From: a virus
Lineage: Duplodnaviria; Heunggongvirae; Uroviricota; Caudoviricetes
Strand: one strand, 5' to 3'
Length of the DNA: 4,311 nt
IMG/VR virus record: IMGVR_UViG_2778261574_000004
Location: 1-4,311 of that record
Part shown: positions 1-4,311 of the stretch, one piece after another
How the letters are laid out: every line of letters starts with the position of its first letter
How positions within the stretch are numbered: the first letter of the stretch is position 1
Position numbers and translations under genes: made by a program
Notes under the pieces: model-generated
Told to the model about the DNA's origin: nothing
The model's database searches: none
Seen by the model: only the letters and a program-made list of their open reading frames with translations

Positions 1-17
1 ACCTTGGTTTAAGAGAA
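1..17. other. Left DNA-invertase crossover site (hix/gix/cix-like), truncated by the window start; only the inner half-site GGTTTAAGAGAA (6..17), core TT (4-5) and 3 nt of the outer half are present
   Basis: Positions 1..17 ACCTTGGTTTAAGAGAA are the reverse complement of the inner half and core of the right site (4276..4292). The core dinucleotide is TT here versus AA at the right site, i.e. identical in inverted orientation as needed for inversion by a serine invertase. Confidence 0.6.
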
Positions 18-182
18 CTCGGTACCAGCGGTGAAAAGATCCCCTTGTTGAGCACGGCTAACACATGGAGTGCGCGCCAGACTTTCAACGGCGGGATCAC
101 CGGGGCACTGACAGGGAACGCCGATACCGCGACGAAATTGAAAACAGCCAGAAACATTAATGGCGTCAGGTTCGATGGTTCT
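1..182. repeat. Inverted repeat block A, left copy (pairs with 4111..4292)
   Basis: Direct comparison with the reverse complement of 4111..4292 gives 180/182 identical. The two mismatches (pos 45 T vs C, pos 107 A vs G) are both synonymous (Leu TTG/CTG, Ala GCA/GCG). Identity stops abruptly after the codons for FDGS (182). Confidence 0.95.
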
Positions 183-1565
183 ACGAACATTTCGATACCA
201 ACAATTACGTCTAGAGGACGCGTTACTGCGCTTACCGGTACAACGCAAGGTGCTGCTACTGGATTGCAGATGTATGAGGCATACAACAATGGTTATCCAA
301 CGACTTACGGGAATGTACTTCACCTGAAGGGAGCAGCATCCACTGGTGAAGGCGAGTTGCTCATTGGCTGGAGTGGCACAAATGGCGCTCATGCACCTGC
401 TTTCATTCGATCCAAAAGAGATAGCACTGCTGCGGCATGGTCCGAATGGGCGCAGATCTATACGTCAAAAGATTCAGTTCCCGGCGTCAATGCTAAAGGG
501 GATCAGGATACCTCTGGTAATGCGGCTACAGCGACTAAATTGCAGACAGCATGTACTATTAACGGTGTCTCGTTTGATGGTTCTAAAAATATTGAGCTAA
601 CGGCGGAAGATTTAAATCTTGAGCAAACCGTAGAATTAGCCGCTGGATCATTGCAGAAAAACCAGAACGGCGCAGATATTCCAAACAAAGATAAATTTAC
701 GCAAACAATAGGTGCTTGCCGCTCTTTTCATGGTGCTATTAGCACAGGTGCAGGAAACTGGACGACGGCACAATTGATTGAATGGCTGGATTCTCAAGGG
801 GCATTCAATCACCCATACTGGATGTGCAAATGTTCATGGTCATACGGCAATAATAAAATTATTACCGATACTGGCTGTGGAACTATTCATCTTGCAGGTT
901 GCGTTATTGAGGTTATGGGTAATAAAGGTGCCATGACCATCCGTGTAACAACACCAAGCACTTCCACCGGAGGTGGCACCACTAATGCGCAATTTACTTA
1001 TATAAACCATGGCGCAGATTACGCCCCAGGCTGGCGGCGCGACTACAGCACAAAAAACCAGCAACCTGCATTTGCTTTAGGGCAGACAGGAAGCACAGTT
1101 GGAAATGACAAAGCTGTTGGATGGAACTCAATTAGCGGGGTTTATAACGCAAATATTGGTGGAGCATCTACGTTAATTCTTCATTTTTATATGGGAGCTG
1201 GTAGTTGTCCGGCTGTTCAGTTCCGCGTGAATTATAAGAACGGCGGTATTTATTATCGTTCAGCGCGTGATGGTTATGGATTTGAGGCTGACTGGTCAGA
1301 GTTTTACACCACGACCCGCAAACCCTCTGCGGGAGATGTTGGTGCATACACGCAGGCAGAATGTAACTCAAGGTTTATTACAGGTATTCGCCTTGGCGGT
1401 CTGTCATCTGTTCAGACATGGAATGGTCCCGGCTGGTCTGACAGGTCAGGTTATGTCGTTACGGGTTCAGTTAACGGAAACCGTGATGAATTGATTGATA
1501 CAACTCAGGCAAGGCCAATTCAGTATTGCATTAATGGGACGTGGTATAACGCGGGGAGTATTTAA
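3..1565 (+). CDS. Tail fibre protein, variable C-terminal part A (5'-partial; frame enters from upstream of the window through the left crossover site; first in-window start candidate is TTG at 45; stop TAA 1563..1565)
   Basis: Long ORF (506 aa from TTG 45) whose frame stays open back to position 3 ([22 protein letters not shown]...). Two copies of a fibre-repeat-like motif GNAxTATKLxTAxxINGVxFDGS (nt 114..182 and 516..584), which I recall from lambdoid/P1/Mu-type side tail fibres. Gly/Asn/Thr/Ser-rich beta-type composition; C-terminal tip motif IRLGG...INGTWYN shared with the minus-strand fibre; immediately followed by a tfa gene. Confidence 0.88.
   Translation, partial: LGLRELGTSGEKIPLLSTANTWSARQTFNGGITGALTGNADTATKLKTARNINGVRFDGSTNISIPTITSRGRVTALTGTTQGAATGLQMYEAYNNGYPTTYGNVLHLKGAASTGEGELLIGWSGTNGAHAPAFIRSKRDSTAAAWSEWAQIYTSKDSVPGVNAKGDQDTSGNAATATKLQTACTINGVSFDGSKNIELTAEDLNLEQTVELAAGSLQKNQNGADIPNKDKFTQTIGACRSFHGAISTGAGNWTTAQLIEWLDSQGAFNHPYWMCKCSWSYGNNKIITDTGCGTIHLAGCVIEVMGNKGAMTIRVTTPSTSTGGGTTNAQFTYINHGADYAPGWRRDYSTKNQQPAFALGQTGSTVGNDKAVGWNSISGVYNANIGGASTLILHFYMGAGSCPAVQFRVNYKNGGIYYRSARDGYGFEADWSEFYTTTRKPSAGDVGAYTQAECNSRFITGIRLGGLSSVQTWNGPGWSDRSGYVVTGSVNGNRDELIDTTQARPIQYCINGTWYNAGSI
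438..619. repeat. Inverted repeat block B, left copy (pairs with 3677..3858)
   Basis: Reverse complement of 3677..3858 matches 438..619 with about 5 mismatches (about 97 percent), including perfect runs of 40-66 bp. Encodes WSEWAQ(I/V)[14 protein letters not shown](D/N)[16 protein letters not shown](C/R)[22 protein letters not shown] in both fibre genes. Mapping is left x to right 4296-x. Confidence 0.95.
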
Positions 1566-1567
1566 CG

Positions 1568-2101
1568 ATGATGCACTTAAAAAACATTACTGCTGGCAAC
1601 CCTAAAACAAAAGAGCAATACCAGCTAACAAAGCAATTTAACATCAAATGGCTTTATTCAGATGATGGAAAAAACTGGTATGAGGAACAAAAGAATTTCC
1701 AGCCAGACACTTTGAAAATGGTCTATGACCATAACGGCGTTATTATTTGTATTGAAAAGGATGTTTCAGCAATTAATCCAGAAGGCGCAAGCGTCGTTGA
1801 ATTACCTAATATTACAGCAAATCGCCGTGCTGACATTTCTGGTAAATGGATGTTCAAAGATGGCGTAGTGATAAAGCGAACTTATACCGAGGAAGAACAG
1901 AGGCAACAAGCTGAAAATGAAAAGCAAAGCCTATTGCAACTTGTCAGGGATAAAACCCAACTGTGGGACTCACAGCTACGGCTGGGCATCATTTCCGATG
2001 AGAATAAACAGAAATTAACCGCGTGGATGCTATATGCGCAGAAAGTAGAATCTACAGATACCTCCATCCTGCCAGTAACGTTTCCCGAACAACCAGAATG
2101 A
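1568..2101 (+). CDS. tfa: Tail fibre assembly protein (Tfa/U-type chaperone), partner of fibre A
   Basis: ATG at 1568 (second ATG at 1571) lies 2 nt after the fibre stop, with GGGGAG (1553..1558) as Shine-Dalgarno. 177 aa. C-terminus ...LTAWMLYAQKVESTDTS...PEQPE resembles the conserved Tfa C-terminal motif (recalled lambda Tfa ...LEAWKKYRVLLNRVDTS...). N-terminal ~100 aa about 70 percent identical to the minus-strand paralog. Confidence 0.85.
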   Translation: MMHLKNITAGNPKTKEQYQLTKQFNIKWLYSDDGKNWYEEQKNFQPDTLKMVYDHNGVIICIEKDVSAINPEGASVVELPNITANRRADISGKWMFKDGVVIKRTYTEEEQRQQAENEKQSLLQLVRDKTQLWDSQLRLGIISDENKQKLTAWMLYAQKVESTDTSILPVTFPEQPE

Positions 2102-2104
2102 GAA

Positions 2105-2131
2105 AAGGCCCGTTATCGGGCCTTATTTTTT
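2105..2131. terminator. Bidirectional rho-independent terminator between the convergent tfa genes
   Basis: Perfect 8-bp stem AAGGCCCG (2105..2112) / CGGGCCTT (2117..2124) with 4-nt loop TTAT and 6 GC pairs; followed on + by ATTTTTT (2125..2131) and preceded by GAAAA (giving a U-tract on the minus strand). Sits between the + tfa stop (2099..2101) and the - tfa stop (2130..2132). Confidence 0.7.
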
Positions 2132-2657
2132 ACTCAGGTTTTTGTGGCCATTCTGGCTTTGCCGTATCCACGCGGCTTACAAGAACGCTGTAGCGTTCCC
2201 ATGCTTCCAGTCGGCTGTGGTCCTCATCCGTTGCCATATTCAGCCTTACTGCACGCTCTAGTAGTTGAATGACTGATTCAGCATCAGCAAGAAGTCTAGC
2301 TTTCTGATTTTCTACCTGCTGCTGTAATTCCTCTGCCGTATAAATACGTTTAATAACTGCGCCATCCTTAAACATCCAGTTACCTGAAATGTCGGCACGT
2401 CGGTTAGCAGTAATATCCGGCACTTCAACAACACTTAATCCATCCGGTCTGATAGCTGTTACATCCTTTTCCACATAGCGGATGATGTTATCTTTGTCAT
2501 ACGCTAATTTTATCGTGTCATCCTGGAAGTTCTTTTGTTCCTCATACCAGTTTTTACCGTCTTCTGTAAAAAACCAGATGACATCAAAATGTTTCGTCAG
2601 CTGGTATTGCTCAACTGTTTTTGGATTACCCGCTGTTATATTGATCAAATGCTGCAT
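2130..2657 (-). CDS. tfa: Tail fibre assembly protein (Tfa/U-type chaperone), partner of fibre B; start taken at the ATG (revcomp of 2655..2657) 4 nt after the fibre B stop, not the upstream start at 2855 in the ORF track
   Basis: The 241-aa track ORF overlaps the fibre B 3' end by about 200 nt; the internal Met ([14 protein letters not shown]...) aligns with the start of the plus-strand tfa ([14 protein letters not shown]...). C-terminus ...[27 protein letters not shown] matches the recalled Tfa family C-terminal motif well. Confidence 0.85.
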
Positions 2658-2661
2658 AAAT

Positions 2662-4311
2662 TTAAACCTGTGCCACGTTATACCATGTTCCGTTAATATA
2701 TTTCTGTACCGGTCTATAATATACGCCACCAATGTTATCGGCAGAGTTTGAACCGGTATCCTGGACAATAATGCCGGAATAAACGCAACCTGACGGTGCC
2801 TGATGGGTCCATGTTGTGCCATTATTTGCAGGTTTGTATGATGATGCGCCACCAAGCCTGATATCCCTTACATAGCGGGAATCAAAGTTGCCATAATTAC
2901 CTGGGATAATTTGCGAACCGCAAAGCCAGTTACCGTTATTATCCATGTACGCCTGACCATCGGTGCCATTGGCTGTCCTTGAGTTATTAATCATGTAGAT
3001 GCCAAATTGCTTGTTCCCCAGTCCACCTATCATGAACTTGCGGTCAACGTGATTCTGGCGAAGCAACGCCTGAGCGCTATCTGTATTAACTATATTTTTC
3101 CCAAAGATAGCGTTGTTATCGCGCATCTGAATCCACATACCATTACTGCTGTTAATAGCAAAACGGTCTGAAAGCGTCTCTCCTGAAACATTAAGTCCGC
3201 GTCCCATAGAAACTGCGCCAGTGGCATTATTAATCCATAATGGTCTTAATCCGTTATAAGTCCCCATGTTGTCACCGGAGTTTGTCAACATGAAGTATGT
3301 ATTTGAACCATCATTACGGATAAAAAACCCGTAATTACCATAAGCAATACGGAGGCCGTTTGCTGATTTTGATATTACTTCGCCATTTATAATGGCGTTG
3401 ATAAGAACATACAAAGCATCCCATTTAAGATTCATCAGGTCTTTTGTTGTAGTGCTTTGTTTGCTTCTCCATTTGAAATATTCATTGCCGTTGTCGCCTG
3501 TTTCAAACCACATGAATGAATCAGTATCGCTGTCGGCATCATTTTTAAAACCAATCTTCGCCCAATCAGTATTTCGAATCCAGGCAAGGATTGAGTCATT
3601 TTCAAAAGTAAGCCCGCCGGACAAGATATCGCCTGAACGCTGAACGGCATTATTTGCTTTATTAATGAATTCCTGTAAATTTAAATCTTCCGCCGTTAGC
3701 TCAATATTTTTAGAACCATCAAACGAGACACCGTTAATAGTACGTGCTGTCTGCAATTTAGTCGCTGTAGCCGCATTACCAGAGGTGTCCTGATTCCCTT
3801 TAGCATTGACGCCGGGAACTGAATCTTTTGACGTATAGACCTGCGCCCATTCAGACCAGTTGGCAGAATCAGTATCCCGCCGCGAACGGATATGTACTGG
3901 CGCATGGTCACCACTCGTGCCACTCCAGCCAATGAATAACTCACCTTCGCCAGCAGCGGTGGCACCTTTAAGGTGAAGCACATTGCCATAGGGGGAAGGG
4001 TAGCCATTGTTGTATGCCTCATACAGCTGAATCCCGGATGTTCCCTGTGCATTCGCCTCCAAGGCCGTTACGCGACCGCGTGATACCAGAGTATTGATAT
4101 TAATGTCACCAGAACCATCGAACCTGACGCCATTAATGTTTCTGGCTGTTTTCAATTTCGTCGCGGTATCGGCGTTCCCTGTCAGCGCCCCGGTGATCCC
4201 GCCGTTGAAAGTCTGGCGCGCACTCCATGTGTTAGCCGTGCTCAACAGGGGGATCTTTTCACCGCTGGTACCGAGTTCTCTTAAACCAAGGTTTTTGCGA
4301 ATTGCCTCCGT
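2662..4311 (-). CDS. Tail fibre protein, alternative variable C-terminal part B (5'-partial or silent copy; frame open from the window end through the right crossover site; first in-segment start candidate is TTG at 4245..4243; stop TAA revcomp 2662..2664)
   Basis: 527 aa from TTG. The first ~46 aa are identical to fibre A, the next ~85 aa about 70 percent identical, the next ~60 aa nearly identical (block B), and the remaining ~330 aa unrelated except the C-terminal tip (IRLGG...[11 protein letters not shown]). Same two fibre-repeat motifs (revcomp coordinates 4111..4179 and 3712..3780). The frame upstream of 4245 reads ...[22 protein letters not shown] with no stop to 4311. Confidence 0.88.
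3677..3858. repeat. Inverted repeat block B, right copy
   Basis: See left copy. The 3-nt offset difference from block A reflects one extra codon in the diverged patch on the plus-strand gene (255 vs 252 nt). Confidence 0.95.
4111..4292. repeat. Inverted repeat block A, right copy
   Basis: Reverse complement matches 1..182 with 2 mismatches; mapping is left x to right 4293-x. Confidence 0.95.
4276..4301. other. Right DNA-invertase crossover site, 26 bp: TTCTCTTAAACC-AA-GGTTTTTGCGAA (imperfect dyad around a 2-bp core)
   Basis: Seen in sequence: two 12-bp imperfectly inverted half-sites flank a central AA at 4288-4289. From memory it closely resembles the Hin/Gin/Cin/Pin site family (recalled hixL: TTCTTGAAAACC AA GGTTTTTGATAA). 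It sits exactly at the outer boundary of inverted-repeat block A. Confidence 0.75.

Follow-up and report, generated by a model that had tools for sequence, protein, structure and literature searches.

The window, by which is meant the whole 4,311-nt stretch of DNA analysed here, holds two convergent gene sets, each consisting of the variable C-terminus of a tail fibre and its own chaperone (Table 1). By megablast the window is 88.7% identical at the nucleotide level to the annotated invertible C-segment of the Punavirus P1 (NC_005856) over 96% of its length. Further matches were obtained with P7, D6 and RCS47, and the central part of the window matched the G-segments of Mu and D108. The hairpin between the convergent chaperone genes has an 8-bp stem with runs of A and T on either side.

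In the plasmid collection, 4311/4311 nt of the window aligned with pRHB23-C01_3 with only 2 mismatches, at window positions 125 and 151, and the match also spans the 19 window bases that lie outside the repeat. This plasmid of Escherichia fergusonii RHB23-C01 (NZ_CP057567.1; 95,926 bp) is IncY and P1-like, and the window occupies its positions 26291-30601. Both flanks were read from it, 2 nt different from the window as it is; its locus is referred to as L001, in which the window is 6001-10311. Exact-match scans of genome and viral contigs with a 61-nt stretch specific to the window (99-159) and with the 36-nt invertase-side junction gave no hits, and a search for records encoding the silent fibre reading frame of the window also came back empty. 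Since the best public record differs from the window by these 2 nt, we infer the left flank from a near-identical plasmid. At both 125 and 151 the window base is the base found on the opposite repeat arm, and on sequence grounds the two differences look like homogenisation (gene conversion) between the arms. The difference at position 151 is an Ile to Arg change in the fibre.

Table 1. Features of the window, in window coordinates.
Feature	Position	Strand	Remarks
Left arm, outer inverted repeat	1..191	.	pairs with 4102-4292, 97% complementary
Left crossover site, cut by the window edge	1..17	.	ACC TT GGTTTAAGAGAA
Variable C-terminal fibre part, Sv' type	3..1565	+	P1 Sv' homologue, 89% amino acid identity
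Tail-fibre assembly chaperone, U' type (Caudo_TAP)	1568..2101	+	predicted to be co-expressed with the + strand fibre part
G+C-rich hairpin, intrinsic terminator-like on both strands	2105..2124	.	between the convergent gene sets
Tail-fibre assembly chaperone, U type (Caudo_TAP)	2130..2657	-	predicted silent in the window orientation
Alternative variable fibre part, Sv type	2662..4290	-	P1 Sv homologue, 89% amino acid identity
Right arm, outer inverted repeat	4102..4292	.	pairs with 1-191
Invertase-proximal 26-bp crossover site	4276..4301	.	TTCTCTTAAACC AA GGTTTTTGCGAA
Spacer start	4302..4311	.	first 10 nt of the 64-nt spacer from the crossover site to the invertase ATG

The outer inverted repeat is mismatched at only 2 positions (45 and 107) in its first 182 nt, and a second repeat block further in (267-626 vs 3670-4029) is 83% complementary. 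The stretch 4246-4311 is made up of the outer end of the right arm, the 26-bp crossover site and 10 nt of spacer. The two 26-bp sites lie in inverted orientation, with identical inner halves and complementary cores, which is the arrangement of two imperfect palindromes that marks the Hin/Gin/Cin/Pin (Din) family. The window edge leaves only 3 nt of the outer half of the left site, followed by the central TT and the inner half. In pRHB23-C01_3 the full left (Sc-side) site reads TTATCCAATACC TT GGTTTAAGAGAA, is exactly P1 cixR and abuts Sc. In the right site the inner half and the AA/TT core are those of P1 cix, but the outer half GGTTTTTGCGAA is of the type carried by phage-plasmids of about 48 kb (e.g. 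the plasmid of E. coli ATCC 25922) and not that of P1 cixL. The right site is a hybrid in which a P1 core and inner half are joined to a donor-type outer half. Its core (4288-4289) is AA/TT as in P1 and SJ46; in the 48-kb plasmids, which appear to be the invertase donors, and in Mu the core is GA/TC.

A first-pass annotation of the window had noted that the fibre frame is open to both edges, and this was borne out, from window base 3 on the left and from the right crossover site to the window end on the right. It was also right that the invertase and the fibre N-terminus are absent from the window and that 22 nt lie beyond the central AA on the right. Two details needed correction. The central TT on the left has 3 nt (ACC) before it rather than 2, and the seven codons past the right site encode TEAIRKN, not RRQFAKN, which had been read in a neighbouring frame. 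The further claim that the window cannot decide which flank is which stands for the left edge, since both outer half-sites contain ACC. It fails for the right edge: bases 4293-4311 agree throughout with pRHB23-C01_3 on its invertase side, and 9 of them do not match the flank beside Sc in the inverted sibling described below.

Two orientations of the segment in sibling plasmids

The sibling isolate RHB23-C02, obtained from the same farm sample as RHB23-C01, carries pRHB23-C02_3 (NZ_CP057563.1; locus L002), which is also 95,926 bp long. When the two loci were compared in record orientation, all differences were confined to L001 6045-10248, and the flanks of the siblings are therefore identical. 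The segment of L002 is reversed: a single CDS (L002 8662-11649) joins Sc to the other variable part, and the Sv'-type part lies next to the invertase flank. Turned to the orientation of the window, the L002 segment is the same as the window as far as base 4292, except at 125 and 151, where L001 differs too. At 45 and 107 the arm-specific bases travelled with the segment, which places the exchange within the outermost 44 nt, the part of the arm that contains the 26-bp site. Both orientations of the segment, as expected of the Hin/Gin/Cin/Pin family, are represented by pRHB23-C01_3 and pRHB23-C02_3, an observational comparison of two assemblies. As far as the aligned bases can tell, the sibling pair fits site-specific inversion and argues against exchange at random points along the arms.

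The same two orientations could in principle come from RecA recombination between the long inverted repeats or from a choice made during assembly. With 97% complementarity over 191 nt and homology over about 620 nt, the arms are repeats of a kind on which both RecA and assemblers can act. Evenly spread crossovers, however, would mostly fall further in than the outermost 44 nt to which the exchange is confined, and an intact invertase and canonical sites are present at the locus. We consider either origin very improbable.

The constant fibre part and the invertase

The left flank was examined in L001. A CDS of 973 codons (L001 4644-7565) begins 453 codons before the crossover and continues in frame into the window, crossing the site as ...LAKTSTLAVIQY| followed by window-encoded residues. 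The 453 left-flank residues, which end in ...LAVIQY, are 97% identical to P1 Sc, the constant part of P1 gpS. Together with the + strand fibre part of the window they form a 973-aa fibre protein. Because it is joined in frame to Sc of the left flank, the Sv'-type part is the expressed copy in the window orientation. An R homologue lies 5' of Sc, as does a stretch with 98% identity to the P1 late promoter LPs. With the P1 annotation as reference, both LPs boxes are kept (-22 AAGTTACTT and -10 TACAAT). The locus therefore has the traits of the P1 C-segment, namely the Sc-Sv split at cixR, the Sv/U and Sv'/U' sets, long inverted repeats and the R-S-U operon with LPs. The first-pass annotation had anticipated a flank with a promoter and the constant 5' portion of the fibre gene. 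The - strand fibre part has neither promoter nor constant part in the window orientation, and its frame exits into the invertase flank.

We also considered whether both fibre reading frames might start inside the window, at the TTG codons at 45 and 4245 or nearby, with no shared constant part, which would depart from the Mu/P1 arrangement. Both TTG codons appear in the list of open reading frames, and PGAP calls the silent copy either as a free-standing gene (L001 8662-10197) or from the invertase flank (L002 5922-7565). Such starts are nevertheless very hard to reconcile with the 453 in-frame, P1 Sc-like codons by which the left reading frame extends beyond the window, or with the sibling, whose identical Sc runs into the other variable part. 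Gene callers presented with a short open frame produced the free-standing annotations. The Mu/P1 paradigm therefore holds, given the long in-frame continuation of the fibre on the left flank, and in-window starts are very unlikely. The case carries a caution for annotation, as gene callers make spurious fibre starts in the invertase flank. The call at L002 5922-7565, a 547-aa 'tail fiber protein' started from TTG in the invertase flank, overlaps the start of the invertase gene on the opposite strand. Elsewhere in the locus a homologue of the P1 baseplate gene bplA (L001 1850-3283) is labelled 'bleomycin hydrolase'.

The right flank carries an invertase gene (L001 10366-10947, + strand, 193 aa) that points away from the segment; counted from the window end, its ATG begins at base 55. 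Here the fibre frame stays open for 33 codons after the crossover, past LGLREL, before a TGA closes it. The suggestion that the right flank is the constant side, with the - strand reading frame 2662-4290 expressed, leaned on the seven stop-free codons beyond the right site, but such a run is expected by chance with a probability of about 0.71, or (61/64)^7, and so carries no weight, TEAIRKN is unlike the ...LAVIQY end of Sc on the left flank, the frame closes at the TGA and the invertase starts there on the opposite strand, and a different right flank in the window's own source is spoken against by the 19 flank bases inside the window, all of which makes this assignment barely credible. Taken together, the Sc fusion on the left and the invertase with the fibre-frame TGA on the right establish that the constant fibre side is the left flank and the invertase side the right flank. 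The window is thus read, with a probability of about 0.9, as a P1 C-segment-type invertible tail-fibre cassette of a P1-like IncY phage-plasmid, with 4246-4311 as its invertase-proximal end.

A serine recombinase had been expected on the flank opposite the constant one or on the same flank, and pRHB23-C01_3 has it on the opposite one. The protein matches Pfam Resolvase (E = 7.8e-44, residues 3-135) and HTH_7 (E = 4.4e-15, residues 138-181). At 193 aa and with a C-terminal HTH it conforms to the Hin/Gin/Cin/Pin (Din) family, whose members are about 180-195 aa long. Comparison with Gin crystal structures gave about E = 1e-71 (3uj3, E = 1.3e-71 over residues 2-191). An alignment shows the same nucleophile, Ser9 of the motif YARVST, in Gin and Cin, in agreement with the position of the catalytic serine (9 or 10) in the family. 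NCBIfam returned only sub-threshold matches, to other serine recombinase models. Amino acid identity is 61% to Gin, 58% to Cin, 86% to the invertase of the 48-kb plasmids and 100% to 'Pin' of SJ46. On these identities the enzyme is not Cin; by sequence it is a heterologous Gin-family enzyme that has taken the place of most of cin. When the right flank was scanned for sigma-70 promoters, sites were no more numerous than in shuffled sequence, and so no invertase promoter is claimed.

A remnant of cin is still present. It lies about 770-990 nt right of the window end (L001 11304-11080, - strand, 74 codons), is frameshifted by a 1-nt deletion and keeps the cin promoter region, the start codon and the first ~230 nt before it breaks off. 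The same remnant occurs in phage SJ46. An intact cin whose 3' end overlaps cixL, as in P1, was not found at the locus; the foreign invertase gene lies between the remnant and the site.

Homology to P1 ends at the crossover site (L001 10294/5). The 48-kb plasmids match L001 10282-10874, which starts at window 4282, at 89.7% identity; the 3' end of Mu gin with the DNA that follows it matches L001 10706-11069 at 81%; and the 5' end of P1 cin, reversed, matches L001 11072-11350 at 91%. Judged by these matches, the invertase module (L001 10282-11350) is a mosaic of three sources. That P1 homology breaks off precisely at the crossover site points to an exchange of the module at or through the site itself, and this break illustrates modular exchange of invertase genes between phage-plasmid families. 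A 790-nt module beginning at window 4296 is near-identical in seven other plasmids (Escherichia and Salmonella) and in phage SJ46, and the right-flank module also occurs in the E. coli plasmid NZ_CP159120.1 (97.3%).

A second phage-plasmid, of 48,686 bp, is present in both host strains, as pRHB23-C01_4 (locus L008) and pRHB23-C02_4 (locus L007). The plasmid has an invertible fibre cassette of its own, and the gene for its 184-aa invertase shares ~90% nucleotide identity with the present one. A second flipped segment was sought in these 48.7-kb plasmids, and the orientation of their cassette proved the same in both isolates. Invertases of the Hin/Gin/Cin/Pin family cross-complement. The invertase of the 48.7-kb plasmid could act in trans on the present sites. 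We nevertheless infer that the flipping is done by the present invertase rather than by its co-resident relative, and the sibling pair suggests that the swapped invertase arrangement is functional.

Candidate enhancer sequences and predicted Fis contacts

In the Hin/Gin/Cin/Pin family a recombinational enhancer with two Fis sites acts in cis and usually lies at the 5' end of the invertase gene. The enhancer annotated in P1 is cin nt 19-90. In the cin remnant 67/72 of these positions are kept, at 926-997 bp from the crossover. The equivalent segment of the present invertase gene (nt 19-90) lies 95-166 bp from the crossover, as against 85-156 bp in Mu, and it matches the P1 and Mu enhancers at only 45-46/72 positions, a level of agreement that coding constraint could explain. 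The native spacing of the Hin enhancer is ~100 bp (PMC3798978). A scan with the degenerate Fis consensus gave a single positionally conserved match, shared by gin, cin and the present gene at nt 71-85, and no convincing partner Fis site.

In what follows the numbering of Hin and Gin is taken to be offset by one residue. The residues at the positions of the Fis contacts, Q150, R153 and L154, are invariant with Gin and Cin. In Hin these contacts are made by Gln151, Arg154 and Leu155 in helix 1 of the DNA-binding domain (PMC3798978). Helix B is less well conserved. Where Hin has the basic residues Lys47, Arg48 and Lys51, the present invertase has Asp46, Lys47 and Lys50, so that 2 of the 3 are basic. 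The position of Lys47 of Hin, which clamps the enhancer, is reported to be 'always a lysine' in 15 aligned invertases (PMC3798978). Asp46 also occurs in the invertase of the 48-kb plasmids, and Lys in Gin and Cin. The present invertase is still basic at residues 47, 50 and 53. At the position of Hin H107 and Gin H106 it has Thr106; the change H107Y makes Hin independent of Fis (PMC3798978). Residue 114 is Leu (Leu114), against Met in Gin (M114) and Val in the crystallised Gin of 3uj3.

By its family membership the present invertase is likely to depend on Fis and an enhancer, for which the two stretches above are candidates, and the residue changes could be neutral. The three positions would also fit an altered or relaxed dependence on Fis and the enhancer in the invertase type of SJ46 and the 48-kb plasmids, a reading that is improbable; the cin remnant might then have been kept because its enhancer is used.

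Proposed switching and comparison with known systems

Transcription and translation would enter the segment from the left, passing from LPs through the R homologue and Sc into whichever variable part faces left. Since Sv'/U' faces the left flank in the window, the Sv/U set beside the invertase is expected to be silent. A Gin-family serine invertase would bind both sites, cut at the central AA/TT dinucleotide and flip the 4.3-kb segment, and the flip would switch host range.

The assignment of the flanks was a bookkeeping question that near-identical public plasmid records answered. The two isolates from one farm sample provide a natural example of inversion of a P1-like fibre cassette despite a truncated cin and a reversed foreign invertase. 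Variation in cin among P1-like elements has been described, including truncated and reverse-orientation copies, and the switch was thought likely to be impaired (PMC6906374).

The locus is a textbook Mu/P1 host-range switch, in which a P1-type cassette, fibre operon and Sc-side site are combined with a Mu-style heterologous Gin-family invertase. The likeness to P1 extends to the order of the cassette (Sv'-U' then U-Sv) and to the proteins, with 97% identity for Sc and 89% each for Sv' and Sv. The Sc-side site is cixR, the inner half-site and AA/TT core are common to both sites, and LPs is conserved. The neighbouring genes are also those of P1, lydC-lydA-lydB-hdf-darA-ddrA on the invertase side and 16-bplA-pmgA-sit on the fibre side. 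In P1, however, cin points to the segment and its 3' end overlaps cixL, whereas the 58%-identical invertase found here points away, and cin itself is reduced to the frameshifted 74-codon 5' remnant. The outer half-site on the invertase side also differs (TTCGCAAAAACC here vs CAATCCTAAACC in P1).

On the invertase side the layout resembles that of Mu, with a crossover site, a short spacer and an invertase gene transcribed away from the segment. The invertase has 193 aa in both, its DNA-binding domain is nearly identical to that of Gin, and nucleotide identity to Mu is 81% across the 3' end of the gene and the DNA beyond it. The protein as a whole is nevertheless only 61% identical to Gin, and the Mu sites have a GA/TC core. 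The constant fibre part of Mu is far shorter than the 453 codons found here, its entire S gene being 1515 nt. The inverted repeats of Mu are ~34 bp long. Mu is a transposable phage, whereas the replicon here is a P1-like plasmid-prophage.

The right-flank module also occurs in the Salmonella phage SJ46, a P1-like Punavirus (NC_031129), in which it is 99.7% identical at the nucleotide level, with a 100% identical invertase and the cin remnant as well; its invertible cassette, in contrast, is a different and shorter one. The paper on SJ46 names only 'cin' (PMC5241659). The 48-kb plasmids share with the present locus the outer half-site, the spacer and the first ~170 invertase codons (~90% nucleotide and 86% protein identity). 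They differ in that they are not P1-like, have a GA core and encode a 184-aa invertase with a different C-terminal tail.
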